From Ignavibacteriales bacterium (GTDB lineage Bacteria > Bacteroidota > Ignavibacteria > UBA10030): a DNA stretch of 64,000 nucleotides. Location: the NCBI GenBank assembly GCA_016194505.1, contig JACQBK010000016.1, positions 5,654 to 69,653 on the forward strand, written 5' to 3'. Below are positions 14,343 to 29,796 of this stretch, one piece after another (position 1 is the stretch's first letter; every line of letters starts with the position of its first letter). The notes below the pieces were generated by a model. That model did not search any database, had not been told where the DNA came from, and saw only the letters and a list, made by a program, of their open reading frames with translations. A program made the translations under genes and the position numbers.

Positions 14343-14888
14343 TTATTTATCAGGATTCTCTTCATCGTACTCCCATTGTACCACATTGTTGATGATGTAT
14401 TCATTGATACGCCTCAAATCATCTTCATTGCGAATGACATGTTCCCAGTAATTACGTTGCCAAACAGGTATGCGAGGCGTGTTGCGCAACTGATTGACAC
14501 GTTTTGTGACTGCGGATTTAAACAATCGAACGATGGTAGGAATGGAATTTGATGTTGGTTTTCCAAATTGTTCGTTTGTAGGGGCACGTTGCAACGTGCC
14601 CCTACTATTATTTATTAAGATTATTACGCCGTGAAAATGGTTTGGCATAATAACAAACTCACCTAGCTCTATATCGGGACGAATGATCGGTGTTTTTAGC
14701 CATTCATCTTTTACAATGTTACCGACATCACTCAATATCATTTTCCCACCAACAATTTCTCCAAACACACATTGTTTATTAAATGTGCAAATCGTTATGT
14801 AATATCCACCTTCTTGAGAATAATCATATTTTCTTAATCGAATAGAGCGGCGTTGACGGGCGATTGAATATTTATTCATCAAACACAA
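14343..14888 (-). CDS. IS200/IS605-family HuH Y1 transposase of the REP-associated tyrosine transposase (RAYT) type
   Basis: HuH motif MPNHFHGVI and catalytic-Tyr motif WQRNYWEHVIRNEDD, compare E. coli RAYT ..PEHMHCIW.. and ..QPRFWEHAIRN.. as recalled from memory. A REP/BIME-like element lies 43 nt upstream. Confidence 0.75.
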   Translation of the reverse strand: MCLMNKYSIARQRRSIRLRKYDYSQEGGYYITICTFNKQCVFGEIVGGKMILSDVGNIVKDEWLKTPIIRPDIELGEFVIMPNHFHGVIILINNSRGTLQRAPTNEQFGKPTSNSIPTIVRLFKSAVTKRVNQLRNTPRIPVWQRNYWEHVIRNEDDLRRINEYIINNVVQWEYDEENPDK

Positions 14889-15247: not shown

Positions 15248-16171
15248 CTAAAACGTCAATGTTGCGGTTGCGGTAGGGACAAATTCAACGAAGCCGTACG
15301 GTCGCAGTGTAGGTTTGAGATGCGCTTCAAGTTTCAATTGCTGGTTGAATTGCGTGGCGCTCCACGCGGCATCAAGCGCGCTTAAGATGTGGTTCGCCAC
15401 AAGCACGGAAGCGGATGTGCTCGCTATGTTAAAGAAATCATTCGCTTTGCCGCGCATAGCCGAATACTCAAGAAAGCGCGGAGAAACATTGCTCGTAATA
15501 ATATCTGAAGGCGTGATGTTTCCATCATCCCATCCGCCCGCGAATTGCGGATATTTTCCAATCAGCTCGTAATATTGTTGTTCCGGTCGCCGCGGCAAGC
15601 GGTGAGTAAAACCATTGCCGCTTTTTTTTGCAATTTGATCTTCGGCAGCATTTAACTTTGCCCAGTCAACACGCTCCCATGGCGGCTGGCTGCCACTGCC
15701 TGTTACAAGTCCCGAGAAGCCGCCAGCGTCAGGGTTCAACTGCCCGCCGTACTTCTCAATCCATTGAGCATAGAGAACAACCGACCAGTGCTCGTCGGCA
15801 TAGTTTTGGAAAAAATCCGTCTGGTTATTTCCTTTTGACGTGTAGGCGGCGTACACGATCCACAAAGCGACCTCAGCCGCCAAAAATCCTCCCGCCCTCC
15901 AATAGTTTTGAGTATACAATTCGCCCGTACCGGGAATAGCGGCGGAAAACAACCCTGCCAGCAACGGCGATTTTTTTTGTTCGTCATACTGAGAAAGCGT
16001 GCCCTTAAGAGAATCAAGAGATCCCCATTCAAACCCCGCCATCAAATCAGCTCGTAGGTTACCCGTAAGCTGAAAAGCTTTTATCCCCTCGCTTTGAGCA
16101 AATCTCATCTGCCCGATTGCCGCGGCAGGCAACAGCATAACCATCATCACTACAACACGTGAAGCGCGCAT
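15248..16171 (-). CDS. DUF5683-like hypothetical outer-membrane/secreted protein
   Basis: Signal peptide from M17 (MRASRVVVMMVMLLPAAAIGQ). The segment SPLLAGLFSAAIPGTGELYTQNYWRAGGFLAAEVALW resembles the DUF5683 core. The C-terminal ..ATATLTF is beta-barrel-like. Confidence 0.45.
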   Translation of the reverse strand: MRASRVVVMMVMLLPAAAIGQMRFAQSEGIKAFQLTGNLRADLMAGFEWGSLDSLKGTLSQYDEQKKSPLLAGLFSAAIPGTGELYTQNYWRAGGFLAAEVALWIVYAAYTSKGNNQTDFFQNYADEHWSVVLYAQWIEKYGGQLNPDAGGFSGLVTGSGSQPPWERVDWAKLNAAEDQIAKKSGNGFTHRLPRRPEQQYYELIGKYPQFAGGWDDGNITPSDIITSNVSPRFLEYSAMRGKANDFFNIASTSASVLVANHILSALDAAWSATQFNQQLKLEAHLKPTLRPYGFVEFVPTATATLTF

Positions 16172-16184
16172 GATCGCTCTCTTT

Positions 16185-19100
16185 CTATTCTCCTGTATGC
16201 ACCGCGTTTCTAAAAACATTACTCACCTGATTCAATTCAAACCCAAAGAGCACTCCTAAATAAAATCGCCATTCTTTTCCGTACGATACATCCACGTTGT
16301 TGAATGTTTTGTTGAACCGGTCGAAGCCGTACGCTCCGCTGAAAAAAATACGCGTAGGATATTGATAAAACGAAAATGCTTCGAGGCGAAGCTCGAACCC
16401 CGCATCGCTTTTCCAAGTGCTGAAAGATGGCGTTGCGCCCGTCCACGCTTCTCCGTAATCGCCGAAGACGGAGCCGTATAGTTTCGTGAAATAAAATTGG
16501 AACAGCCGAACATTGATGGAAGTCCAAATCGGAAAACGATACGTGGCATTGAACGTCGCCGCATTATTGCCGCCCAAGGCATAGAATGGATAGCCCCGCA
16601 TCCCGATAAATCCGCCGGCATAAAAATCGAAAAATCTATCCACTTCTTTCCCCAGAGTGCTATGCGCTTGCGCCGATAACGTAAGGGTATGTTTCGATAT
16701 GGGCAAGCCTATGTGCTCATTCCATTGAAGCTCGAGGCGATGAAAGCTGGGCTTGCTGTAACGAGGAACAAGGACACCACTTTGAATATCAAACTCACCT
16801 TCGGCGTTGAACTTATTTGTTTCATATGAATACTTCAATGAAAATGTCCGACCGATAGGGTTAATATCCTTATCAACGGATGGCTGAATACCTTCGTGAG
16901 TAAATTGGGCGGAAAAAACATTGCCTATGAGATATAAATTATCGAACGCGGGAGAAACTCCCACGGTGGGAATGAAAAAACCCCCGATGGCGGCGCTGTA
17001 ACGGCTGAGCGCGTACCCGATTCTTAGTTGGTTATGTTCACTAAAAATCTTTTGCCGCATCGTGACATCGAATTCAAGAAGGTTATAGGTTACGTCGGTT
17101 GGGATGCTATAATTTCGATCCGTATACACAGAGAGAGAGACATCCGTTTTGCGGGAAATGTTGTATAATTCCAACGAGACAACCGGCTCTAACCCAAGTT
17201 GATAGAGCAACGGAACTGCGTCCTTGTATTCAAACACAAAAAATAAATCCCGCTCTAAGCGCCGATTGATCGCCGCGCCACCGAACAGCGAAAACTTATC
17301 GAGCATATCGCTCGATGAAAAATAAAAGCCGGGACGAATAATATCTAAGCCAGTATTGTGAGGATTATAATTATCTACGCGCAAAAAGGGAATAACAGTA
17401 AGGCTGGTGAATACGTTCTTGTAGGGTTTCGAGTGTGATGAGACCGAATCTGGCAACGAGCGGACGATTGTAACCATTCTCGTCCCGTCCAATGCAGGCA
17501 CTTTGACCGAATTGTTCTCATTGAGGTTTTGACCGGCAGAAAAATAAGGTGTAGCTTCAACTTCCTTCGGGTTTTGTAAATAGGCAATCTTATAACCGCT
17601 GGATATATAGGAAGCGAACGCAAGCGCTCCATCAGAGTTGATGACGGGCAACAACGCTCCGCCTAGAACATTGGTAATTTGTTGTTTTGTTTTTGTCCCG
17701 ATTTCATAACGATAAATGTTAAATATCCCGCTCGCATCGGAAGCGTAGTAAATATATCTGCCATCGGGTGAAAAACCTGGGTTCCGCGAATCGCCATCGC
17801 GCACGAGTATTTCAAAGCGAGACCCATCTTCTGCAATTATCGCCACAGATTGATTATGTCCGACCGAATAACCGAACGCAATGAGTTTCCCGTCCGGCGA
17901 CCACGCAGGTGTGTACGATTGCTCGCCCTCCGTAAACTTTGTCACCTGTTTGACATTTTTTCCCTCCGCGTCCGCAATACCAATATTGACTGTGCCGTCA
18001 TGGCCGTATGCAAAGACGAGTTTCGTTCCATCGCGAGAAATGCCGGGGTTCCATGCGCGCAATCCATACGTCAGACGCTGTTCTTTTTTGGCGATAAGAT
18101 CGTATCGGTAAATATCGGAAAGCTTCGACCAATGGGGATTATCCCTGCTCAGTTTGGAATAATACACATAGCGCCCATCCGGTGAAAACGACAACGATGA
18201 CCTTGTGGTAATATCTAACTCCTGAGATTTTTTTGATTCAAGATCATAGAGATACACAGAGCTTAGACTGAAATAATCTTTGCCCTTGTTGGAGATGTAA
18301 GCAAGTTTTTTTCCATCCGGAGAAAATGCCGGATAAAAATTGCCAAAACCCTCCGGCTCGATTATTGCTCCTTCAACTCTTGCAGATGACATTGAGCTAA
18401 GCAGTTGTCGGTAGTGCTCCGTCTTGGCTTTTTTCCACTCTTGGTATAATTCTTCACCCGATTTTTCGAGAACGGCGGCGATCGCGCCATCCACCGTTGC
18501 TCGCGGCAATACGCTTAGTGCCTTAGAAATTTCACGAAGCTTATCCACGCCGTACGTTTCCGCAATATACTGCACGATAGAAAAGCCCGCATTGTACGAT
18601 GATTCGTTGCCGAGACTTGTCTTCCCGAACACCGACATTTCTTCCCACGTCAGCGGGTTACCATCGAGCATATACATCCTTAAAATCATATCACGGTGCG
18701 AATCCCAGTAATCATAATTGATGTCCGGATGATTATACTGGGCAACGCCTTCCGCAAGCCACGTCGGCACGACAAACGCTGAAAATGGGTACGAGGCAAT
18801 GACATTCGGATAGCCATACAGGACATCGGGGCGACGCTCGGCTTCATACCCCAACCATTGGAAATACACGGCGGGAAATTTTCTTCCCAGCTTCATCGCC
18901 GTTTGAATCTGGACAATATGAGTAAACTCGTGCGTTACCACATCTTTGAGCCACGGGTGGGTTCCGCGAAGCTCAAAATCAAGCGCAGGAGCCCAAATCT
19001 CGATTTTGTTATCATAAAAATATGCCGCCCCGTTTGAATAATCATCGTGGTCGCGAATAACGAAGCTGACTTTTTGATCCGGCTGATGCTGATACATTTC

Positions 19101-19301
19101 AGTAATAGGACCGTAGATTTCTTCGGCGATGACGGCTACTTCACGAGCCGTCCGTTCAGCGCCGTTGTGGAAATGCACGAGGAAGCGTGGGGTCTCAATT
19201 GTTTGCCAATTCAATTCGGGATGGGTGTATTCATCATCCTGAGCAACCGCATGACAAACGAAAAAGAATAAATAAAGAAAAAGTAGGGAGAGTGTTTTCA
19301 A
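16185..19301 (-). CDS. Large secreted multidomain protein: N-terminal HEXXH zinc-metallopeptidase-like domain, central TolB/PD40-like beta-propeller repeats, C-terminal Omp85/BamA-like beta-barrel
   Basis: Signal peptide, HEFTHIV motif, PD40-like repeats (..SPDGKKLAYISNKGKDYFS.., ..SPDGRYVYYS.., ..SRDGTKLVFAYGHDG.., ..SPDGKLIAFGYS.., ..SPDGRYIYYASDASGIFNIY..). The C-terminal 400 aa have alternating aromatic strands (..FELRLEAFSFYQYPTRIFFSGAYGFDRF..). Confidence 0.6.
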   Translation of the reverse strand: MKTLSLLFLYLFFFVCHAVAQDDEYTHPELNWQTIETPRFLVHFHNGAERTAREVAVIAEEIYGPITEMYQHQPDQKVSFVIRDHDDYSNGAAYFYDNKIEIWAPALDFELRGTHPWLKDVVTHEFTHIVQIQTAMKLGRKFPAVYFQWLGYEAERRPDVLYGYPNVIASYPFSAFVVPTWLAEGVAQYNHPDINYDYWDSHRDMILRMYMLDGNPLTWEEMSVFGKTSLGNESSYNAGFSIVQYIAETYGVDKLREISKALSVLPRATVDGAIAAVLEKSGEELYQEWKKAKTEHYRQLLSSMSSARVEGAIIEPEGFGNFYPAFSPDGKKLAYISNKGKDYFSLSSVYLYDLESKKSQELDITTRSSLSFSPDGRYVYYSKLSRDNPHWSKLSDIYRYDLIAKKEQRLTYGLRAWNPGISRDGTKLVFAYGHDGTVNIGIADAEGKNVKQVTKFTEGEQSYTPAWSPDGKLIAFGYSVGHNQSVAIIAEDGSRFEILVRDGDSRNPGFSPDGRYIYYASDASGIFNIYRYEIGTKTKQQITNVLGGALLPVINSDGALAFASYISSGYKIAYLQNPKEVEATPYFSAGQNLNENNSVKVPALDGTRMVTIVRSLPDSVSSHSKPYKNVFTSLTVIPFLRVDNYNPHNTGLDIIRPGFYFSSSDMLDKFSLFGGAAINRRLERDLFFVFEYKDAVPLLYQLGLEPVVSLELYNISRKTDVSLSVYTDRNYSIPTDVTYNLLEFDVTMRQKIFSEHNQLRIGYALSRYSAAIGGFFIPTVGVSPAFDNLYLIGNVFSAQFTHEGIQPSVDKDINPIGRTFSLKYSYETNKFNAEGEFDIQSGVLVPRYSKPSFHRLELQWNEHIGLPISKHTLTLSAQAHSTLGKEVDRFFDFYAGGFIGMRGYPFYALGGNNAATFNATYRFPIWTSINVRLFQFYFTKLYGSVFGDYGEAWTGATPSFSTWKSDAGFELRLEAFSFYQYPTRIFFSGAYGFDRFNKTFNNVDVSYGKEWRFYLGVLFGFELNQVSNVFRNAVHTGE

Positions 19302-19309
19302 GTAAATTT

Positions 19310-20056
19310 TTAAAATTTAATGTCTATACGGGTTATATGGTTCTTCTCGATGTGCAGATAAATTGATCTGCTGTTGTTTTCCGCCAATGCAAACTGAAGA
19401 ACCACATAAGGAATGATGCGGTGATTACCATAGTACACTGAACTATCAGAATTGTATAACGGAACAGGGTAAAAATCTATCGGTAGATTATCGTCGGGAA
19501 TCAAAAATTTCCCGAGCGAATCCGTCCGTGCCGTCACATTGCCGCTTACCGTAACAGGATATGATTTCTTCGTTTGCTCATCAACTATATACCGGACAGT
19601 ATAGACGCCGCTTGGCGCAGGCACACCGTTGGATTCTTTTTGATCCCATACAATGACAAAGGGTCCCCTCTCAGCGCGACCATTAAACAAAATTCGCTTT
19701 AAATGTTCTTTACGGTCATAGACTCCAACGAGAATAATCTTAACAGGGTCGTTCACCTGGAACTCTTTGGAAGGAGGGTCGTTGCTATCAACAGACCCGT
19801 AATCATAAAAAAGCTGCACGGGAATATCACGATAGGGATTCCCTAACCGGTCCGTCAATGTCCCCTCGATGCGGTACCCTGAGATCTCCGGTTCACTCGA
19901 TAAGGCAAGCGGAATTTCTCTCTCACAGCCGGACACAACGACAATCATGAAAGCATAGAACACAAAAAAACCTCTAACACTGAGGTGATTCTTCCTTGCA
20001 CTATCTTGTCCTGCTAACGTTTTCATATCCTCGACAGCACCCGGCGATCCATTCAC
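19310..20056 (-). CDS. Hypothetical lipoprotein
   Basis: Lipobox ..MIVVVSGC. The GTG at 20056 overlaps the upstream stop as GTGA; the alternative ATG start (MKTLAGQ) is at 20026. Confidence 0.45.
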   Translation of the reverse strand: MNGSPGAVEDMKTLAGQDSARKNHLSVRGFFVFYAFMIVVVSGCEREIPLALSSEPEISGYRIEGTLTDRLGNPYRDIPVQLFYDYGSVDSNDPPSKEFQVNDPVKIILVGVYDRKEHLKRILFNGRAERGPFVIVWDQKESNGVPAPSGVYTVRYIVDEQTKKSYPVTVSGNVTARTDSLGKFLIPDDNLPIDFYPVPLYNSDSSVYYGNHRIIPYVVLQFALAENNSRSIYLHIEKNHITRIDIKF

Positions 20057-23000
20057 TTCACCACTGCAATTTTGATGATCGCCACTTCATTGCGACTGCC
20101 ATCCGTTGCTTCGATTCGAGCAAGATACACGCCGCTTTGAACGTTTGAAACATTCCAAGCGACTTCGCCGTCAATACCTGCAAGGGAGCGAGCTTTTAAC
20201 TCTGTTATTTTCGTGCCCGCCAGGTCAAAAATTTTGATTGAAATATCCGCATCTTCGGGCGTGTAGTACCGAATGTGCGTTGTCGAGCCATACACGGGGT
20301 TGGGCCAATTGTAGGTTCGAGCTTTCGGCAGAAATTCTGATGGAGTTGGATTGGTAATAGCTATCACGGACCCATCCCTGTTCTGATGCAGAGCATCGCC
20401 AAGATACTGCGACCACATCATCGTCTCTGCTTTGTATGACCGATTCAACTCAACTGCTTGGAGGGAGCCTGATGCCGTGACTCTGAGAGCTCCAATTTTC
20501 CCGTTGGAGGTTTGAAACAAACTTGGGAACGCTTCACCCGCACCGCTGAGTTGGATCGGAAAGCCAGAAATTATTTGACCATTCCTATCGCACGCCGTCA
20601 CCTCACCCGTTGATTGAAGCGCAATAATGTCGGGGAACGAATCTCCGTTCACATCTCCGATGAGAGGGAAACCGACAAACGAGCCATCGCCGGAGGCACG
20701 AAGAGGGAATCCTGCCAAGAAACTACCCGCTTGGTTCATCGCATAGAGATTTTTCCCAGCCAGTAAAACTATGTCCTTCTTGCCATCGCCATCTACATCG
20801 GCAACCGAGACCGAAGAAATGCTTCCATCCGCAATAGTGTTATCAAAAACCTTGTCGGTGAGGTTTCTATTATAAACAACAACCCTTCTCCCTCCGCGTT
20901 GAGCCGCTACTATAAAATTACCCAACGACGATGTACCCCCGGCAAGAATCCACGGAAACGACGAATCACCCAAGGATACGGAAGCCAGCTCACTGTAAAT
21001 TTTGCCACCGCACGCGAAGAAATACTCGTTAGGCTTGGAAAGCGCCACTGTAGGCAATTGTGCTATTGAAGAAACAGGGCTTGTGGAGACGCTTGTTTTT
21101 TTGCTTACGGCACCGTTAAGGTTCACTTGCCAAATCGTTCCGCTTTCTCCTCCAATAATAACAGAGCGGGCAATGGAAAGGTCAGCAAAAGCAGGCGGCG
21201 TCGTTACGCGTGCGCCAAGGGGAGTAATCACTGTTTGCAGGCTGTCATACACTCCATCGTTATTTCGGTCGTACGCCGTCCAGAAATATAACGAGCTATC
21301 TTGTGCCCCAGCTAACATGTGTCCGTTGTTGATCGTCTCAAATCCGGCTATTGGAAATTGTCCTCCTGCGGATGCAAACAACCCAGTCGGATCATTTGTT
21401 TTGCTCGTCCCCTTTTGTTGGAACGCATAAACTTTTCTTCCTGCGGGGACAATGGATGCAGTAGGAAAAATTGTCGGCGGCAGCGTCGAGTTGTTTACTG
21501 AAAGTGATCGGGAAAAATTATCCAGCCGTTGAAATTGGTCATCCCCGATTTGCACCGTTGCGGTCATGCGCGGCAACCGCTTGCTGAAATTTTTAATCGT
21601 TATTAAACTTTGCGCCCCGCTGTTACTCTTGCTATTGGGACTGGAATTTTTATCGAAGAGATTTTTATACACAATGGTCGTATTGCCGTCAAACCAGCAA
21701 TCGAGGGGCCAGCCAAACTCGGTGCCGGAGCCGGCTTCTTGGAAGGTGTACGTTCTTCCCACATCTTGAGAGCCGTCGGCTTCTTCGAGATCAACGCCGC
21801 GCAGATTCTGGTTTGCATTGACCGTGTTATCCTGCAACCCTCGTGCGATCACATCCTCATCAATATGCCAGATGAGAATTCCCCCGCCTTTGAATTCCTC
21901 CGATTCAGCCAACAAACCGGGAAGCGCCCAATCGAAATCTTCCACGTCAATAACTGATCCCGTAATTGCGCTGACATCTGCAAATGCGCTATGCAAAAAA
22001 CCCACTGTATCAACAGGAAAATATTTTGTGATAATGGAATTTCCCTGACGAATCGTCAATCGCTGGCCATTCTGTTGCGGGTCGCGGCTGCGATTTTCGA
22101 TAAGGAAATATTCCCGCTCGTTAATCGGGACCTTGTAAATCGTATCCTGCCCCACATTGGTGAGGCTCACTGCCGGAAGCGAAAGAGTCGTTGTGCCCGA
22201 TGAAACAGTAATCGGCGTAACCCATCCAAGATAGACCTTTTCCCACGCCGAAGGTTCAGGCGGAAACAATCCGTTAAATGCGCTGATGCCGCCTCTATCC
22301 ATCAATCCAAATCTGCCAATACCAGAGGCACCTGTTTTCGTATTGAAGAGATCCGGCAAACCGAGATAACTTCCAAATGAATTAGCAAGCAACCCATTGA
22401 AACTTAATCGTATTGTATCAAGTACCCCACCCACAACAAGAACGCGGGATTCGGTTTCGGGGAGCACCATTGTATTGGTGATACGAAATGCGCCTTTGCT
22501 CACAGGAATTCCCGCATACGATGGGTCTTTGAGATATTCTTGAAATGTCTTAAGGTTAAACGTGATGGATGGTATGTCATTCGGCGTTGGGTCGAAGCCT
22601 AATATCTCTACTAAATCAATATCTCTCCCAGCACCAGCGTGAAACAATATAAACGCATTATACTGAGAGAACTGAAGAGCAGGATAGAGAGAGTCTGCCG
22701 TATGCCAGCTCTCGACAACAAGATCGGCAAGGGGCTTATTGTTGCTCTTATCTTTGGGAGGCGAATACGCGGACATTTTTTTCGAAAGCGTAATCGTCTT
22801 GCCAAATACTTCCCCCTTAATATTTACTTTACCGTTCGATACTTTGCGGAAGTAATTGGAAAGAAACATCAGCTTATATGCGAAATAAGCGGAATCGTGC
22901 GGAGGCGGATCAATGAGCCGCGCTGCAGAGGCGGCATCCATTTGAAATCTGCCGTTACCAGTCGTGAGTGTATCCGTGTCTTGCGGAAAATTTACCATCA

Positions 23001-23163
23001 AAGCGAGAATACGGATTGTATCCGACGAGGAAGAAGACGGGGAAAGCGCACGCGCAACAGGCGCACCCATACCCTCTCGTTTCAACGACACGGCATGGCG
23101 GACTTGAGCCTGAAGGCTACAACCGAGAAGAAAAAAAAAGAAGAGAACGCGACCAGCTTTCAT
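20053..23163 (-). CDS. T9SS cargo protein: signal peptide, M6-peptidase-like N-domain apparently lacking HEXXH, FG-GAP/VCBS-type repeats, C-terminal Por-secretion sorting domain
   Basis: The C-terminus ..YNWPNPVYGSTTHIRYY...GVYLARIEA...IKIAVVK matches the T9SS type-A C-terminal domain pattern. VADVDGDGKKDIVLLAG is FG-GAP-like. SYLGLPDLFNT resembles the M6 GLPDEY region, but no HExxH was found. Confidence 0.6.
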   Translation of the reverse strand: MKAGRVLFFFFLLGCSLQAQVRHAVSLKREGMGAPVARALSPSSSSSDTIRILALMVNFPQDTDTLTTGNGRFQMDAASAARLIDPPPHDSAYFAYKLMFLSNYFRKVSNGKVNIKGEVFGKTITLSKKMSAYSPPKDKSNNKPLADLVVESWHTADSLYPALQFSQYNAFILFHAGAGRDIDLVEILGFDPTPNDIPSITFNLKTFQEYLKDPSYAGIPVSKGAFRITNTMVLPETESRVLVVGGVLDTIRLSFNGLLANSFGSYLGLPDLFNTKTGASGIGRFGLMDRGGISAFNGLFPPEPSAWEKVYLGWVTPITVSSGTTTLSLPAVSLTNVGQDTIYKVPINEREYFLIENRSRDPQQNGQRLTIRQGNSIITKYFPVDTVGFLHSAFADVSAITGSVIDVEDFDWALPGLLAESEEFKGGGILIWHIDEDVIARGLQDNTVNANQNLRGVDLEEADGSQDVGRTYTFQEAGSGTEFGWPLDCWFDGNTTIVYKNLFDKNSSPNSKSNSGAQSLITIKNFSKRLPRMTATVQIGDDQFQRLDNFSRSLSVNNSTLPPTIFPTASIVPAGRKVYAFQQKGTSKTNDPTGLFASAGGQFPIAGFETINNGHMLAGAQDSSLYFWTAYDRNNDGVYDSLQTVITPLGARVTTPPAFADLSIARSVIIGGESGTIWQVNLNGAVSKKTSVSTSPVSSIAQLPTVALSKPNEYFFACGGKIYSELASVSLGDSSFPWILAGGTSSLGNFIVAAQRGGRRVVVYNRNLTDKVFDNTIADGSISSVSVADVDGDGKKDIVLLAGKNLYAMNQAGSFLAGFPLRASGDGSFVGFPLIGDVNGDSFPDIIALQSTGEVTACDRNGQIISGFPIQLSGAGEAFPSLFQTSNGKIGALRVTASGSLQAVELNRSYKAETMMWSQYLGDALHQNRDGSVIAITNPTPSEFLPKARTYNWPNPVYGSTTHIRYYTPEDADISIKIFDLAGTKITELKARSLAGIDGEVAWNVSNVQSGVYLARIEATDGSRNEVAIIKIAVVK

Positions 23164-23235
23164 AAAGCTCCCGGGGTTGCTCACAAGAAATACCCTTCTG
23201 CATTTTCCCAACAAAGGTTCCTTCGGAACACCCTC

Positions 23236-24348
23236 TTATTCGGGTGCTCCTCCCCAAGAGATTAAAAGAGTAAAGCGTAATGTTTCTCCGAGTGGATGCT
23301 GTTCTTCAAATGCACTAATGTAACTAAAATCAAAACCGTAAATGTCATACCGAACGCCAGCGCCGAACGTCGCAAACTTACGATTACCCGCCTGAGGGTC
23401 TTCATAGAAGTACCCTACACGCAAGGCAACCCATTTTTTATACCAATATTCGAGACCGGCTCCGGTGACAAACTCACGCATAATTTGATTGAAAGACTTG
23501 CCCGTCCACGTGGTGAAGATCGCCTTATAGAAAGGATCGTATGTTGAACCATCACCAGTCTTCTTCACAAGCAATTTATTAACGTCGAGGATACCGGTAA
23601 GGTTATTAAAGTCGCTTTCGATAATTTTATATGCAATTCCTAAACGCAGATAGGTGGGGAGCGCATCGGCTTGAGCCTTATCAATGTACGTCAATGCGGG
23701 ACCTAAATTCGAAATGTTCATCCCGGCGCTGAAGCGATCTCCCAAATCAATTCCCGTAAAGGGTATTGATGACGAACGGGGCCTATACAACAATCCGACA
23801 TCGAAACTAAAACCGGAGGCAATACCTTTCCCTTTTTCCTCAGCCGTTCCAAACGGCGCAAGATAACTGTAGATGAAACGCGCGTTAATGCCCAGAGCAA
23901 AACTTTCGGAAATTTTCGTAGCGTATCCCGCGGTAACCGCAAACTCGTACGCCTTAAAAGTCTCAATGACAGTGGGGTCAATTTCAGTTCTGTTGAATGA
24001 GCCGAGATTCAGATAGGTAATACTCGCGGCAACGGTGCCGTCCAGCTCGGGTACTTCTCTTCTATACACCAAATAATCAATGAAGAGATCGTCCAAGCGA
24101 AATGCCGGCAGCCAATTTGCATGAGAGACGCTGATTTCCTGCCCGTGTTGATACGCGAGACCGGCGGGATTCCAAAACAACGCGGAAGCATCATCTGCCA
24201 GAGCAACGCCCGCTTCTCCCATACCGCTCGCCCTTGAGTTCGGGGAAATTAACAGAAATGGCACTGCCGATGTGGTAACTTGAGCATTCAGCATTTCACT
24301 GGACGCCACGATCATAACCATCAGCGCAAACCCAACAAGATTCTTCAT
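23236..24348 (-). CDS. porV: Type IX secretion system outer-membrane channel protein PorV (LptO) family
   Basis: Signal peptide, then the PorV/PorQ signature ..ASGMGEAGVALADDASALFWNPAGL... About 370 aa with a FadL-like barrel. Sits downstream of PorU in the same orientation. Confidence 0.7.
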   Translation of the reverse strand: MKNLVGFALMVMIVASSEMLNAQVTTSAVPFLLISPNSRASGMGEAGVALADDASALFWNPAGLAYQHGQEISVSHANWLPAFRLDDLFIDYLVYRREVPELDGTVAASITYLNLGSFNRTEIDPTVIETFKAYEFAVTAGYATKISESFALGINARFIYSYLAPFGTAEEKGKGIASGFSFDVGLLYRPRSSSIPFTGIDLGDRFSAGMNISNLGPALTYIDKAQADALPTYLRLGIAYKIIESDFNNLTGILDVNKLLVKKTGDGSTYDPFYKAIFTTWTGKSFNQIMREFVTGAGLEYWYKKWVALRVGYFYEDPQAGNRKFATFGAGVRYDIYGFDFSYISAFEEQHPLGETLRFTLLISWGGAPE

Positions 24349-24454
24349 AACGCACATCCTCCAAATAAGAAATAGTTTCCGGCATCATCCCCTGCCAGAG
24401 TGAGTAAAATAGTCGTTTTTATAGTGATATTCAACAGTCGCCATTGAAGATTTA

Positions 24455-25129
24455 TTAATCAAGCACGTACTTCACACCAAATGAAGCCCCAAACGTATTG
24501 ATGCTGTTTATTGCGCTGTGGCCATAATACTTACCAACAAAATTGAATTTATACTGAAACTCCGTTCCAATAACGACCCCGCCTGGCATCGGCCAAGACA
24601 TTGTAGTCATAAAATACAGTGAGGGACATATAATACTTTCATCACGGCTAACCTGCCTACCTAAATTTAGCATACCTTCGTTCGAACTTGCATTATTTTG
24701 AGTAAAACTCGTTCCAACAATCCTCACATCGTGAACGGTTATCCATTCTAACCCAACTCCCGCCCCTACCGCGCTTATAGAACTCAAGCGTTCTAACAAA
24801 CCAACACCCAATGTAACATTGCTCCAGGAAAATGGACCTTGAACAACATTAATCCCTTGTGGATCTTGAAAAGTAACAGTCCAAAATTGATTTTGAGTTC
24901 GAAAATATTCGCCTCGTATGTTCAGCAAAAATTCTTTTCCCAGAGCAATATCCGTGAAAGCTGACAAAACAATATGATCGTTTATCTTTGAAGAATTATA
25001 TGTATTAGCATACCCAATGCGAAAACCTACTCCCGAGACGCTGACTGATAATTCATTTTCGCCTTGCTGGGCTTTTAAAACCGACGACACAAACAGCAAT
25101 GCTACGATAAAACCACGATGAGGGTTCAT
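24455..25129 (-). CDS. Small outer-membrane beta-barrel protein (PorT/OmpA-like family candidate)
   Basis: Signal peptide MNPHRGFIVALLFVSSVLKAQQ. 224 aa with alternating hydrophobic strands. Lies between porU and porV. Confidence 0.45.
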   Translation of the reverse strand: MNPHRGFIVALLFVSSVLKAQQGENELSVSVSGVGFRIGYANTYNSSKINDHIVLSAFTDIALGKEFLLNIRGEYFRTQNQFWTVTFQDPQGINVVQGPFSWSNVTLGVGLLERLSSISAVGAGVGLEWITVHDVRIVGTSFTQNNASSNEGMLNLGRQVSRDESIICPSLYFMTTMSWPMPGGVVIGTEFQYKFNFVGKYYGHSAINSINTFGASFGVKYVLD

Positions 25130-25199: not shown

Positions 25200-28100
25200 T
25201 TACCTTAGCACCGTAAGTTTTCCCAACACTTCGCTCGTAGAGCTTCGGTCGAGCGACTTTGCTATCACCTTATAAAAATAAACGCCGTTAGCGATTTCAT
25301 TACCATCCCGGTCCCGACCATCCCACGGAACTTGCACAAACCGATCTATTATAGATGGCGTGCTCAACGACTGAATCAACCTTCCTGCGATAGTATATAC
25401 TTTTATCTCTACATCTATAGGGTCTATGGAGGTTCGCTGGAATGTGAAGGTCGTTGTCCGGTTAAACGGATTCGGAAAATTGAAAACATTATGAATCGAA
25501 AACACGGACGAATCCCGAACTTCAAAATACGTGTCAGCGAAAGCTGGATTATTATACGTATCCCATGCCTTGACGGAGAGCGTATGCCGCCCTTCCGGCA
25601 AACTCGTAAGCGGATAGCGAACCTGGCCGCTTTGATAGGTATCCAATTTGCCCCGGTAAAAATCCGTCAGATCAAATGAGCGGGAATTATCCATCAACGC
25701 CTCAAGCCGGTGCCCTATGCCGGCAGTGGAGGTATTTATCCCGCTGCTATCCGTCAAGTCAACTACGAGCATCGCATTCGGTTTAACGACATCCCCTGCC
25801 CGGAATGACGGGTCATCGAGATGGATTGAGATTTTTGGACCCACAGTATCCACGCCGGCGTTAGCATTTCCGAAGATGGTAATGCTTTCCGTGTACCCGC
25901 TCGCATCGGTAGAATCGCTATACGCATACACCGCAATGCGCGAACGGCTATCGCCATAGGAAACATCTTTGGGCACAGGGAACGTTGATTTGAACAAGCC
26001 GTTCTTTACGGAAACCTCACCGCGATAAATGAGACTGCCATCTACTTCGAAATAATAATCATTGCCCCACTCCGGCACGAACACTTTTCGTTTTGCATCG
26101 AACACTTCAAGCAACGCGCGACCGTTAAACGTATCCCAGATGGTTCCATTGTTTTTTTTGAGCGCACCGTTCGCTGCAACACGTCCCAATGATGGGACGG
26201 TAATCAGTCTTGCCGTGCTCTGCCCGTTGATGCTATCCACTGTTGCCGTTGCGCGCGGCATAGCAAGCCGCATCGTTGGATCGGCGAGGAGATGGTGTTT
26301 TTGGTCATTGAGACGATTATAAATTTGCTTCGTCGCCCACATCGCATCTCCAAGGCGCACTACTTGCCCTTGAGTATTCTTCGGGAAAAAATAGCTATAC
26401 AAAGCGGCGTTCAATTGAAAATTGTCGTATGAATACACAACCCGAGCCGCCGTTACAACGCCAATGGCTCCGGTTTGCGGCATTGCCAACAACACCTCGC
26501 CGGCGCTTACTTCAAATGGATAATCATAGCGCGCGTAGTCGCACGTAGCGGCAACGACGAGGAATGGCTTACCTGTGTTTCTGATCTGGGAAAAACTCTC
26601 ATCCTTTGAAAATATTTTCTCGTGCGCCCACTGGTCGGGATTACCGTGTCCTGTATAATTGAGAATCAACGTTCCGCGATTGATTGCATCAATGATTGCT
26701 TGATTTGCAGTCGGCTTCCGGCGACCGGTTGATGTAATAACAGTGGGATATTCGACGATATAAATCTTATCTCTTTCAAAGCTTGCCGGCGTATAATCTC
26801 GTGCTATTTGCTCAGCCTGATCGGTATGGATAATCCCATCATCCCCACTGTTGGTTAACCCATCATCGGCAACAAAAGTGATTCTGTTGCGCCAAGGATC
26901 GAACGGCATGGCAGTCTCGTACGCGATAATCTTATCAACAACATCCTTTGCTTCTTTAGTCGAATGAACGGGCAATCGCCCGATAGGCAGAGAAATACGA
27001 TCCACATTAGGTGTCAGGAACACAAAAAAATCGTCGCTTGCAAGCGTAAGAATTTGATGGATAGAATTGAGCGATTCATACGGGAGGACCCAGTTCTTCA
27101 TCGAGCTTTTAATATTTTTATAGTCAAAATTGCCGGCGCCAAACAACAAAACATATTTTGGTCTGATTGTCCAGTTCGTCTGGGCATATTTTAGAAAATC
27201 CCTTATCGCCATCGGATCAATCATGCCGCAGGAAAATTCGTTGAAGATTTGCTCGGTATTAACGACAACAGTTTTTAACTGATCGTTTTTCTCGCGATGT
27301 GCTTTAAGCCGCTCGGCTTCGGAAAGAAAATCCGATGGGGCAATAATAATAAAATCCGCACCATCGGCAATGCCATGCAAATTTGAATTTGTAAGGCGTT
27401 TGGCATTTGTCGGCGTTTTATAGCCATTGGGCCCTACCACTGCAAACTCACGCACAGAACCAGCTACCTGCGGAACTTGAAATTTGACTATGGAAGTGTT
27501 CGCAGGATCAAAAACCAAATTCGTTATTTGCTTGACATTATTGTGCTGTGCAACATCGAAAGCATACACATCCGTACGCGACGAAAGATTTTTCAAATTG
27601 TATTCGATGGTTGCCGTCGTATCGGGCGAGGAGAATAATAAAAAATCGTTTACAGCTTCAAATCGCTGGCGATAGAGTATTTCAAACCAATCTACCCATC
27701 CTTTTGCGGACGAGCTACCTCTCCCAAACAGCACGCGCAATATACTCCTGTCGTTTGGGATTGCACCAAAACGATCATACGTCATAACACCGGTTTGATA
27801 TGCTTTCTCATTTTCGATGGAGTTTACATCAATGGGATATGTGAGAGCCAGAAATCCAAACGGTTGGTTGTTTTCCTGAACACGAAACGTATCAATTGAT
27901 GTTGACTGGCTTAAAAAAGTAAAACGATACGTCATTGTTTTCGTCGCATCCACACCCGGAAGAAGCGTCGTATACACAGCTGAGGTTGTCACGTCGTCAA
28001 ATTTTCTACCAATCCACTGGCGACCGGAGTTCACGAGATTTTCCGCCTCTTCTTCCACAAATACTTTGCCCTGAAAATCCGTTGGATTATAGACACCCGG

Positions 28101-29180
28101 AAGATTCGTCGAGGAGATTGTAGCCATATTTTTCCCGCGCCCTGCTCCACCGTAAGTCAGGAAATAATAATTCGTCTCCGTGTAGTGGTTAATATAGTGG
28201 AAATACGTTTTTGCGCTTGGATCGTATTTCCACCCGCGGGTTGATTTGCCGTAAAAAAGAACAAAGTCGTCTGAATCGAACACGCCATTGCCATTCCTAT
28301 CTACAACGAGGCGCGGAATTTCGTCAATCCCATCAGGTCTTGCCGCGGTAAGGTCTTCCGGAAGCTCCTCTCCCCCGTTACCAAATATTCTTATAGAATT
28401 AATATTCCCGATAGCGCTCAAAGGAATATTTGCCGCCGCAAAAAACGCTTGGTCAATCTTATAGATGCCGTTCTCCTTGACTTCCATTCTGTACCACTCC
28501 CCCTGCGCAAGCGGTGAATCTGAAACTACTTTGCTCGACTTCGCCAAACTTCGCTCCGAAGAGAACGACGGTAACTGATTCTTCAAAAACATGGAAGCCG
28601 AAAAATCTGGGCTTGCCGCTCCCAAAAATTCTATCCTCACGACGATACGAGTATACACGCGCACAGCGTTGCGCCCAAGAGCAACCTGGACGGGATAAAA
28701 CTTCAACGTGCCAAGAGTAAACCCTCGCGATTCCCCCACATCAGAAAGCTCGACAACATCTTTTGGCAAGAAATCCATAGTCTTGAATTTTTCGTCCGGA
28801 GCCGTATAACGAGGCACCACTCCAAACTCTTTGTCTTTTATGAACTGAGGGCGGGTTGCCGGTCGGACTCCAGTAACATCATGGTAATCCACTGCAAGAA
28901 CTTGGATTATATATTTATCGGAAGGGAGATTGACCAAGCCGGCGCGGAACGGCAACATGGGCGACCCTTGTTCACCATAAACAGTCACTGCTCCTTGGAA
29001 ATTAAAGCGCGTGTATTCTACTCCATCGTTGCCGGAAACAGCTGCATTGGTGAACACAGGCACGAATTCCACCACCAACGAGCGGGAGTCTTCGCTGAGG
29101 ACGCGCATGTCCGTACCCGACTGACCATACGAAGTCGCGCAGAAACCTATAAGAAGCACTAAAAAATTAATTTTCCTCAT
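25200..29180 (-). CDS. porU: Type IX secretion system C-terminal signal peptidase/sortase PorU (peptidase C25, gingipain-like) with its own T9SS C-terminal domain
   Basis: About 1330 aa. The signal peptide starts MRKINFLVLLIGFCATSYGQ (M35 of the ORF). Contains a C25-like caspase-fold region. The C-terminal ..FNFPNPFNRTTTFTF...KVYTIAGRL..GKLTVLR matches the T9SS C-terminal domain. porV is adjacent. Confidence 0.7.
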   Translation of the reverse strand: MRKINFLVLLIGFCATSYGQSGTDMRVLSEDSRSLVVEFVPVFTNAAVSGNDGVEYTRFNFQGAVTVYGEQGSPMLPFRAGLVNLPSDKYIIQVLAVDYHDVTGVRPATRPQFIKDKEFGVVPRYTAPDEKFKTMDFLPKDVVELSDVGESRGFTLGTLKFYPVQVALGRNAVRVYTRIVVRIEFLGAASPDFSASMFLKNQLPSFSSERSLAKSSKVVSDSPLAQGEWYRMEVKENGIYKIDQAFFAAANIPLSAIGNINSIRIFGNGGEELPEDLTAARPDGIDEIPRLVVDRNGNGVFDSDDFVLFYGKSTRGWKYDPSAKTYFHYINHYTETNYYFLTYGGAGRGKNMATISSTNLPGVYNPTDFQGKVFVEEEAENLVNSGRQWIGRKFDDVTTSAVYTTLLPGVDATKTMTYRFTFLSQSTSIDTFRVQENNQPFGFLALTYPIDVNSIENEKAYQTGVMTYDRFGAIPNDRSILRVLFGRGSSSAKGWVDWFEILYRQRFEAVNDFLLFSSPDTTATIEYNLKNLSSRTDVYAFDVAQHNNVKQITNLVFDPANTSIVKFQVPQVAGSVREFAVVGPNGYKTPTNAKRLTNSNLHGIADGADFIIIAPSDFLSEAERLKAHREKNDQLKTVVVNTEQIFNEFSCGMIDPMAIRDFLKYAQTNWTIRPKYVLLFGAGNFDYKNIKSSMKNWVLPYESLNSIHQILTLASDDFFVFLTPNVDRISLPIGRLPVHSTKEAKDVVDKIIAYETAMPFDPWRNRITFVADDGLTNSGDDGIIHTDQAEQIARDYTPASFERDKIYIVEYPTVITSTGRRKPTANQAIIDAINRGTLILNYTGHGNPDQWAHEKIFSKDESFSQIRNTGKPFLVVAATCDYARYDYPFEVSAGEVLLAMPQTGAIGVVTAARVVYSYDNFQLNAALYSYFFPKNTQGQVVRLGDAMWATKQIYNRLNDQKHHLLADPTMRLAMPRATATVDSINGQSTARLITVPSLGRVAANGALKKNNGTIWDTFNGRALLEVFDAKRKVFVPEWGNDYYFEVDGSLIYRGEVSVKNGLFKSTFPVPKDVSYGDSRSRIAVYAYSDSTDASGYTESITIFGNANAGVDTVGPKISIHLDDPSFRAGDVVKPNAMLVVDLTDSSGINTSTAGIGHRLEALMDNSRSFDLTDFYRGKLDTYQSGQVRYPLTSLPEGRHTLSVKAWDTYNNPAFADTYFEVRDSSVFSIHNVFNFPNPFNRTTTFTFQRTSIDPIDVEIKVYTIAGRLIQSLSTPSIIDRFVQVPWDGRDRDGNEIANGVYFYKVIAKSLDRSSTSEVLGKLTVLR

Positions 29181-29796
29181 AAAAAATAAAAAAGCCGAAC
29201 GAGGTGAAACAAACGCCCTCATTCGGCTAAACTTTTTATACCGGAGCAAAACCGAATTTGTAAAAGGCGTGTGTTGTAACATCTACTAATCCTGAACGAA
29301 ACTCCTTACACATTAGTTCAGGTACTAACCTTTAACAAATACGTTATTCTTTTACTCCGTTTGGTAATAAATGTTGGGATAAAGATACGCATTCGCTCTA
29401 AAATTGTCAAGGGAATTTTTCTTTTGTAGAACTCCAACGCAACCCCAGAAGCCGCCATCGGAAAAAACCAAATTCTGCCCTCTCCTGTCGAACGACTGTT
29501 TGATGAAGAGCACACAGTATCCGCGTAGTGTCCTCCGCGCTCCTTCGTTATTCATCATGTGTGTCGGAGAATCAATAATCATCGTGGATTTTCTGGGGCG
29601 CTTTTGAGGAGCGGGCAGACTTCAAATTCATCGCGGCAAAATAAACTCCAGAAATACTGCCATATCATATTTTGGAATACAAACCCTGTAAGCTTTGTAT
29701 AATAGCACATAAGGCGGCTTATGCGATTTCAATTGCTTATGAGCTAAAAAAATGGTATATTTCTTCGATTTTTTATGAATTTTACGTTTGGAGCCT

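Follow-up and report, generated by a model that had tools for sequence, protein, structure and literature searches.

What does a protein that joins a peptidase-like domain, a propeller and an outer-membrane barrel do beside T9SS genes? The question was raised by a 64,000-nucleotide window, the whole stretch of Ignavibacteriales DNA analysed here. In an earlier reading of the letters alone (the original prediction), positions 16185–19301 were described as such a fusion, possibly an outer-membrane protease or processing machine.

Gene and export signal

The strand of that description had to be corrected. The plus-strand reading of 16185–19301 is full of stops and was rejected; the gene lies on the minus strand.

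16185..19301, minus strand: complete coding sequence, 1038 aa plus stop codon, TTG start (ORF list and translation)
19242..19301, minus strand: Sec signal peptide, residues 1–20 (…FVCHAVA/QDDE, cut after A), read from the sequence

Full-length homologs of the 1038-aa protein reach an identity of 89%. Residues 1–20 are its sole strongly hydrophobic segment, and the end of the signal peptide (…LxAQ) is kept in the homolog consensus. A lipoprotein signal was rejected for these residues. Scans for promoters and terminators gave chance-level results only.

A gluzincin-type peptidase domain

18381..19241, minus strand: gluzincin-type (clan MA) metallopeptidase domain, residues ~21–307 (Pfam Peptidase_MA_2, NCBIfam, AF2)
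18918..18932, minus strand: HEFTH motif with H124, E125 and H128, predicted to bind zinc and to catalyze; invariant in alignments A1 and A2
18750..18752, minus strand: E184 in W-L-A-E-G, candidate third zinc ligand; W181, E184 and G185 invariant in A1 and A2
18771..18890, minus strand: insert between the HExxH helix and the Glu helix, residues 138–177 (alignments and AF2)

Conservation was assessed in two alignments, A1 with 40 close homologs (57–71% identity) and A2 with 61 distant sequences (31–49% identity). The zincin-like domain of the original prediction was supported. Pfam Peptidase_MA_2 matched the protein itself with E = 1.4e-7 and 32.0 bits, 0.4 bits under the cutoff of 32.4, and it matched 40 of 40 homologs (best E = 8.9e-10). 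The NCBIfam flagellinolysin HExxH model yielded a weak match over residues 118–293, and a profile search against PDB sequences returned no peptidase among its matches. Within the full-length AF2 model, the N-terminal domain has a pLDDT of ~60–90 with one disordered insert. Its secondary-structure elements follow the order sheet, backing helix (49–70), active-site helix (117–139) and Glu helix (180–190), which is consistent with a zincin. The original prediction was to fall if modelling gave no membrane barrel or no zincin fold; a barrel and this zincin-like order were both obtained.

H124, E125 and H128 sit on the active-site helix of the model, and E184 on the Glu helix. All four are invariant across the close and the distant homologs, together with ~20 other residues of the N-terminal domain. 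E184 probably acts as the third ligand of an HExxH…E site, as judged from its likeness to the WLNEGFA segment of M1 peptidases. The features of clan MA(E) gluzincins, an HExxH on a helix and a downstream Glu, are present, and zinc-dependent activity is predicted from the sequence. The insert at residues 138–177 is strongly conserved, yet its pLDDT is below 50; a lid is one possible role, a contact for a substrate or partner another.

Propeller and linker

17562..18380, minus strand: TolB/PD40-type beta-propeller, residues ~308–580, with about six blades (Pfam PD40, NCBIfam TolB propeller model)
17433..17561, minus strand: variable disordered linker, residues ~581–623, at the position of the POTRA domains in BamA and TamA

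At least five PD40/TolB-like blades had been claimed, and the propeller indeed has about six. Sequence and profile searches related it to TolB sequences in the PDB with E ~1e-16. Foldseek with the full-length model matched TolB at 1e-12 and 2ojh with a target TM-score of 0.73, and all 50 matches listed were propellers. The AF2 confidence is high in this region (pLDDT 85–95), and homologs bear the Pfam families Tricorn_N and Tricorn_2nd. The linker has a pLDDT below 50 over residues 586–620 and carries no consensus residues in either alignment; the ~59-residue segment that parts propeller and barrel is variable and mostly disordered. The absence of POTRA domains, noticed at the outset, was confirmed, as no POTRA model of Pfam matched anywhere in the protein.

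Outer-membrane barrel and C-terminus

16239..17432, minus strand: 16-strand Omp85-type outer-membrane barrel, residues ~624–1021
16581..16622, minus strand: L6-loop motif FYAGGFIGMRGYPF, residues 894–907, the Omp85 '(V/I)RG(F/Y)' signature, between strands 11 and 12
16452..16466, minus strand: FGDYG, residues 946–950, the Omp85 'FxDxG' motif ((F/G)xDxG), in strand 13
16239..16262, minus strand: final barrel strand with the aromatic beta-signal …YLGVLFGF, residues 1014–1021
16188..16238, minus strand: 17-residue C-terminal tail, modelled as a low-confidence helix

When PDB sequences were searched by sequence and by profile, only TolB and other propellers came up, with neither BamA nor a peptidase among them, and therefore the barrel needed a structure-based test. 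The C-terminal 424 residues were modelled separately, with a more diverse alignment, because propellers had filled all the matches listed for the full-length model. The prediction yielded 16 strands, in agreement with the BamA/TamA/FhaC fold of the Omp85/TpsB superfamily. The core of the L6 loop, MRGY at residues 901–904, and FGDYG occupy the expected positions in this model. Y904 is invariant in distant homologs, and G896, G897 and G903 are nearly so. F946, D948 and G950 do not vary among close homologs; in distant ones, G950 is almost always kept. The structure prediction and the two motifs thus substantiate the 16-strand barrel that had been proposed for the last ~400 residues. The C-terminus had been called non-aromatic, which is not the case: a normal aromatic beta-signal is followed by a short tail. 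This tail is found in all close relatives and is absent from most distant ones.

Pfam PF01103 (Omp85 domain) gave no match at E ≤ 1 for the protein itself; it matched 7 of the 40 close homologs (best E = 6.2e-8), and precomputed matches are recorded on several homologs. The barrel was matched by just 344 clusters at 50% identity. The complete ones were all ~950–1185 aa long with the barrel at the C-terminus, and therefore this barrel type is bound to this architecture.

Operon and T9SS genes

25200..29282, minus strand: PorU, T9SS sortase, first gene of the operon (NCBIfam T9SS_sortase, 994 bits; Pfam Peptidase_C25)
23236..24357, minus strand: PorV, T9SS outer-membrane shuttle (NCBIfam T9SS_OM_PorV, 279 bits, cutoff 250; Pfam PorV)
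20053..23214, minus strand: M6-like inactivated metalloprotease, T9SS-dependent, with FG-GAP repeats and a type A C-terminal sorting domain (NCBIfam NF052323, 854 bits; Pfam Por_Secre_tail)
19310..20056, minus strand: small lipoprotein with a FlgD-Ig-like domain, restricted to closer relatives
15248..16219, minus strand: DUF5683-like partner gene directly downstream (weak Pfam DUF5683 match; signal peptide)

These genes lie close together or overlap, in the manner of an operon. Among related loci with enough flank, the M6-like cargo gene is directly upstream in 72 of 72, PorV is upstream in 70 of 70 and PorU likewise in 61 of 65; downstream, 68 of 71 have the DUF5683-like gene. The core order of PorV, M6-like cargo, peptidase-barrel gene and DUF5683-like gene is kept in loci of KSB1/Zhuqueibacterota, Marinimicrobia and Calditrichia at 29–41% identity. 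This conserved gene order strongly supports the proposed link to the adjacent T9SS genes. Synteny speaks for an association and not for a mechanism; any functional role in T9SS is putative.

The protein itself was rejected as T9SS cargo, since it has no Por_Secre_tail or type A or B sorting domain and ends in a barrel strand and a short tail. It was also rejected as a known T9SS component (PorE, PorZ, PorQ and others); the sole match was a 16-bit PD40-repeat hit to PorE, whose cutoff is 600.

In lineages such as Ignavibacteria, KSB1, Calditrichia and Marinimicrobia, T9SS has received virtually no study. That a four-gene order has survived in all of them provides a definite hypothesis, one that is genetically testable in cultured species such as Melioribacter roseus and Ignavibacterium album, where related loci show about 47–48% identity. 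Judging from accession prefixes, proteins of both organisms are presumably on the list of Heinz and Lithgow discussed below. Cluster look-ups for one ortholog from a Melioribacter roseus MAG and one from Ignavibacterium sp. yielded no UniProt accessions that would connect them with that list.

Relation to known families

The architecture had not been recognised as a named family. It corresponds to the 'WD40-Omp85' or 'WD40-like' group, of which ~95 Omp85 proteins were catalogued by Heinz and Lithgow (2014, Front Microbiol 5:370, PMC4104836) as one of ten Omp85 subfamilies. Their Phyre2 matches (Table S3) comprise a BamA/TamA barrel, a TolB propeller and an M1 or M9 peptidase N-terminus, and nearly all entries of the table have an N-terminal aminopeptidase- or collagenase-like domain (PMC4104836). 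We assign our protein to this subfamily on shared architecture, by comparison with Tables S2 and S3: a PD40/WD40 propeller that precedes an Omp85 barrel, no POTRA, and a gluzincin N-domain. The subfamily was defined computationally only, the main text does not discuss the peptidase domain, and neither gene context nor a T9SS link is brought up; the wider subfamily also occurs in Vibrio, myxobacteria and Geobacter (PMC4104836). Apart from the 2014 catalogue, our literature search on WD40-Omp85, DUF5683, the Pfam domain combination and T9SS in the phyla concerned brought up nothing, and no experimental work on any family member.

In BamA and TamA, a POTRA arm stands where this protein has its peptidase and propeller, and their sequence similarity to this barrel is below the reach of a profile search of PDB sequences. 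Identity with BamA or a TpsB protein was rejected, as at least one POTRA N-terminal to the barrel is required and none was found. The propeller resembles those of TolB and of the propeller-gated peptidases (S9 family, tricorn), but the latter have a serine hydrolase as the catalytic domain, whereas a zinc gluzincin is predicted here.

Vibrio, myxobacteria and Geobacter are not known to have a T9SS, and therefore a T9SS role could hold at most for the present orthologous group.

Proposed function and alternatives

With the above results in hand, we propose, at a probability of about 0.5 for the whole reading, that the protein is a Sec-exported, outer-membrane-tethered, BepA-like peptidase for the processing or quality control of T9SS-related polypeptides. 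The barrel would be the anchor in the outer membrane. The propeller and peptidase would most likely hang in the periplasm on the flexible ~40-residue linker, since the first strand of Omp85 barrels begins on the periplasmic side. By analogy with S9 peptidases and the tricorn protease, the propeller could capture or filter unfolded polypeptide segments and hand them to the zinc site, whose predicted residues H124, E125, H128 and E184 are intact. In that case, unfolded chains or peptides, and not folded proteins, would be the substrates of the enzyme. Those that it trims or clears at the outer membrane might include cargo that has stalled, sorting domains after their release, or intermediates in the assembly of PorV and the downstream protein.

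BepA of E. coli is an M48 zinc peptidase with a TPR domain, a separate soluble protein that docks on BAM. The likeness would lie in the mode of action only: an HExxH peptidase is kept next to an Omp85 machine on its periplasmic side, and a repeat domain contacts substrates or partners. BepA belongs to another peptidase family, has another repeat domain and is not fused to a barrel, and we claim no homology.

A more specific role, in which the peptidase-barrel protein takes part in a complex, alternative or ancestral, for attachment or processing, is advanced tentatively and is less likely than not. If true, the Omp85 superfamily would for the first time be connected with T9SS in function, and a WD40-Omp85 protein would for the first time have a function assigned to it. 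If the link is positional only, the protein is one more well-described member of a known, uncharacterised family.

The protein could instead be a dedicated Omp85 insertase or assembly platform, with the propeller and peptidase-like domain as mere substrate-binding scaffolds and the barrel inserting or holding one particular partner in the outer membrane, for which PorV and the downstream DUF5683-like protein are candidates. Heinz and Lithgow read the subfamily in this way and likened it to a BamA–BamB fusion (PMC4104836), and the functional Omp85 signatures (the L6 RGY, FxDxG and a glycine-containing last strand) are kept. The C-terminus of the DUF5683-like protein resembles the beta-signal of outer-membrane proteins, with 57 of 69 orthologs ending in F, and its gene often overlaps the stop codon of the peptidase-barrel gene across loci. 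Nevertheless, POTRA domains are absent, and the putative zinc ligands and catalytic Glu are invariant down to 31% identity, although a pure scaffold would not need them. The M6-like neighbor shows how an inactivated peptidase looks: HExxH was searched for there and is gone. We consider a platform without proteolytic activity unlikely.

The location of the operon partners counts against the periplasmic placement that we prefer. PorU, the PorV loops and CTD cargo act on the cell surface and would suit a surface-exposed enzyme better. In a self-exporting arrangement like that of the type Vd protein PlpD, the peptidase and propeller would cross the outer membrane with the help of the protein's own barrel and work beside PorU, PorV and cargo, where they might trim that cargo or digest proteins from outside. 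An enzyme domain N-terminal to an Omp85-type barrel is indeed the layout of PlpD, and the ~40-residue disordered linker could span the barrel. However, PlpD has a patatin passenger that reaches the surface and one POTRA, none of which is seen here, and we know of no demonstrated passage of a beta-propeller through an Omp85 barrel. Moreover, BamA and TamA barrels are kept plugged by the lock that L6 RGY and FxDxG form, and this lock is conserved here. Self-export is thus distinctly unlikely.

We give little credence to a general periplasmic or nutritional oligopeptidase, with the barrel a mere anchor and the position in the PorU/PorV operon meaningless. Pairs of propeller and peptidase are common in housekeeping oligopeptidases, as the S9 and tricorn matches recall, but the gene order is kept in at least four deep FCB-group lineages at 29–41% identity while the flanking genes are wholly different.

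That the protein is the TolB of this organism, as the database names 'biopolymer transporter Tol' and 'Tol biopolymer transport system component' and the propeller matches to TolB models and structures imply, is extremely improbable and is refuted by the domain structure: the equivalog model TIGR02800 gave 104 bits, far short of its cutoff of 343, and in the propeller region only, the N-terminal domain of TolB is absent while a peptidase domain and an outer-membrane barrel are present, and the neighbors are T9SS and not tol-pal genes. TolB is a component of Tol-Pal, to which this protein does not belong, and the domain reading corrects a widespread misannotation.

Gene and Domain Architecture

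The gene encodes an outer-membrane Omp85 barrel that is fused with a propeller and with a peptidase of strictly conserved catalytic residues, and it lies in a PorV-centred module. Database searches returned 5480 proteins matching the product at E ≤ 1e-5. The best 120 of these are all full-length (~1000–1050 aa, 57–89% identity) and come from Ignavibacteria-type metagenome genomes; thus, the gene is clearly real. The plus-strand frame over the same interval has many stops. The protein starts with a typical Sec signal peptide, predicted to be cleaved between …FVCHAVA and QDDE, which is its sole strongly hydrophobic segment. The following features were assigned.

16185–19301, minus strand: target gene, uninterrupted ORF of 1038 codons with a TTG start
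Residues ~21–307: zinc-peptidase domain (Pfam Peptidase_MA_2, conserved residues, AF2 secondary structure)
Residues ~308–580: TolB-like propeller (PD40 and TolB models, Foldseek, AF2)
Residues ~581–623: linker, variable in sequence among homologs and disordered in the model
Residues ~624–1021: Omp85-type barrel (separate model of the C-terminal part, motifs)
Residues 894–907: L6 '(V/I)RG(F/Y)' signature FYAGGFIGMRGYPF, between strands 11 and 12
Residues 946–950: 'FxDxG' motif FGDYG on strand 13, as in BamA

The HExxH motif (HEFTHIV) occupies residues 124–130. Peptidase_MA_2 matched the target with E = 1.4e-7 and 32.0 bits, 0.4 bits short of the curated Pfam cutoff, and it matched 40/40 close homologs (best E = 8.9e-10). 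The flagellinolysin HExxH model of NCBIfam gave a weak match at residues 118–293. His124, Glu125, and His128 are invariant in the 40 close homologs (57–71% identity) and in 60 full-length distant ones (31–49%), as is Glu184 within a W-x-A-E-G motif. Asp84, Asp87, Arg112, Trp117, Asp200, Arg203, Arg208, Glu233, and Tyr236 are further invariant residues of the domain. The AF2 model places a small sheet, a backing helix (49–70), the HExxH helix (117–139), and the helix carrying Glu184 (180–190) in the order expected of a zincin. On the basis of the Peptidase_MA_2 matches, the invariant residues, and this predicted order, we conclude that the N-terminal domain is most probably a gluzincin whose active-site residues are intact. 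Glu184 is the putative third zinc ligand, and the domain is predicted to be catalytic.

A 40-residue insert (138–177; 18771–18890, minus strand) separates the HExxH helix from the Glu helix. Its sequence is highly conserved, yet its AlphaFold2 pLDDT is below 50; possible roles are those of a lid or of a loop that binds a partner.

The PD40 repeats scored 80 bits in Pfam, and the NCBIfam TolB propeller model covered residues 322–544. TolB structures matched with E values of about 1e-16 in the profile search and 1e-12 in Foldseek. The AF2 confidence of the propeller was 85–95, and its approximately 22–24 strands suggest six blades, as in TolB. Identity with TolB itself was rejected: the equivalog model, with a cutoff of 343 bits, reached just 104 and covered the propeller alone, so that names such as 'biopolymer transporter Tol' are misleading.

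For the barrel region of the target, neither Pfam nor PDB sequence searches returned a match; Pfam Omp85 matched 7/40 homologs (best E = 6.2e-8). The last 424 residues were modeled from a 91-sequence alignment that included homologs at 33–41% identity, resulting in a pLDDT of 90.0 and a pTM of 0.85, with 16 membrane strands counted in the DSSP string. Tyr904 does not vary even in homologs of 31% identity; Phe946, Asp948, and Gly950 are invariant among the close homologs. A barrel-only search of 1.84 billion cluster representatives (E ≤ 1e-3) matched only 344 clusters. Every complete match was ~950–1185 aa long with a C-terminal barrel, which ties this barrel type to the architecture of the target.

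The original prediction of a zincin-like HExxH domain, a PD40/TolB propeller, and an Omp85/BamA-type barrel was thus correct: the models contain a barrel of membrane strands and an N-terminal order of sheet and helices compatible with a zincin. The POTRA domains that it reported absent were not found by Pfam search either. The supposed non-aromatic C-terminus is no real anomaly: the last strand ends in a normal aromatic beta-signal (GVLFGF), followed by a tail of variable length (17 residues in the target, 9–20 in 40/40 close homologs, and 0–3 in 40/60 of the aligned distant homologs).

Relation to the WD40-Omp85 Subfamily

The architecture had not been recognised as a named family, and the claim of novelty was wrong. 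Within the Omp85/TpsB superfamily, Heinz and Lithgow (2014, PMC4104836) distinguished ten subfamilies. The one called 'WD40-Omp85' or 'WD40-like' combines PF07676 repeats with PF01103 and lacks POTRA. Table S3 of that study names about 95 members. In nearly every one, Phyre2 assigned the barrel to BamA or TamA and the propeller to TolB, and the 'best aminopeptidase hit' had ~99% confidence (1z5h, 4kxd, or 3qnf of M1, or 4ar1/4ar9 of M9 collagenase). The three-domain layout was therefore already catalogued, and the target, judged by its architecture, adds a member to this known but functionally uncharacterised subfamily. The sole speculation of those authors was a resemblance to a BamA–BamB fusion (PMC4104836). 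Our literature search found no work on WD40-Omp85 after 2014, and no NCBIfam model specific to the architecture was found.

Family naming is inconsistent across databases. In the cluster of the homolog at L065:9986–13090 (L065 is one of the related loci), full-length copies are named 'Tol biopolymer transport system component'. C-terminal ortholog fragments of 209 aa carry the JGI names 'outer membrane protein assembly factor BamA' or 'hemolysin activation/secretion protein'.

The Conserved PorV Module

The target sits in an operon-like gene cluster with small or negative intergenic gaps.

25200–29282, minus strand: PorU
24455–25129, minus strand: orphan protein of 224 aa with a signal peptide, between PorU and PorV
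23236–24357, minus strand: PorV
20053–23214, minus strand: 'T9SS-dependent M6-like inactivated metalloprotease', 1053 aa (NF052323, 854 bits, full-length match)
19310–20056, minus strand: small lipoprotein with a FlgD-Ig-like domain and lipobox VSGC, upstream of the target and downstream of the M6-like gene
15248–16219, minus strand: DUF5683-like protein, downstream of the target

Neighbours were compared by tblastn at 86 related loci (80 of at least 566 matching species genomes, and six contigs); a locus entered the counts below only where its flanking sequence was long enough. The proposed T9SS association is well supported by gene order, as the M6-like cargo gene is directly upstream at 72/72 loci and PorV is upstream at 70/70. 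PorU is upstream at 61/65 loci, and the DUF5683-like gene is downstream at 68/71. PorU is missing at exactly the four loci from outside Ignavibacteria (KSB1/Zhuqueibacterota-type, Marinimicrobia, and Calditrichia). There, target identity is only 29–41%, and PorV is still followed by the CTD protein, the target, and the DUF5683-like gene in that order, while every other neighbour differs. No mention of this module was found in the literature, and it is the part worth pursuing.

The M6-like protein carries FG-GAP repeats, its sorting domain is of type A, and no HExxH was found in it; an inactivated and an intact peptidase thus remain neighbours across the whole family. The FlgD-Ig lipoprotein was detectable in closer relatives only. 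DUF5683-like orthologs have an alternating hydrophobic C-terminus with a final Phe in 57/69 cases, like the beta-signal of outer-membrane proteins. Their gene frequently overlaps the target stop codon; in the window, the gene probably starts at its second ATG (MRASRVV…, about 16171), just past that stop. The 224-aa orphan had no Pfam or NCBIfam match, and tblastn did not detect it at any of the 82 related loci that were searched; different small genes occupy its position in other genomes.

Proposed Function

In the Omp85 topology, a 16-strand barrel begins and ends on the periplasmic side, so the N-terminal domains most likely hang in the periplasm on a flexible tether. The S9 and tricorn peptidases suggest, by analogy, that the propeller could pick unfolded chains for the zinc site. 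From the synteny, and with BepA acting at the BAM complex taken as the working model, the enzyme would process or clear polypeptides related to T9SS at the outer membrane. Against this periplasmic placement, a surface-exposed, PlpD-like protease deserves respect, because the partners of known location act on the outer face. The other rivals to a T9SS-linked periplasmic peptidase are a general oligopeptidase and a non-catalytic assembly platform.

Other Features of the Window

UvrA appears to be split into two overlapping ORFs (6251–7864 and 7789–9153, both minus strand), with ABC_tran on one and UvrA_inter and UvrA_DNA-bind on the other. This pattern points to a frameshift, which may be genuine or may stem from a sequencing error. 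A 181-aa ORF (14343–14888, minus strand) partially matches a REP-associated tyrosine transposase (residues 113–172) and contains a perfect palindrome with a 12-bp stem, GTAGGGGCACGT…ACGTGCCCCTAC, at 14578–14605. It may be a transposase remnant of this type adjoining a REP-like element.
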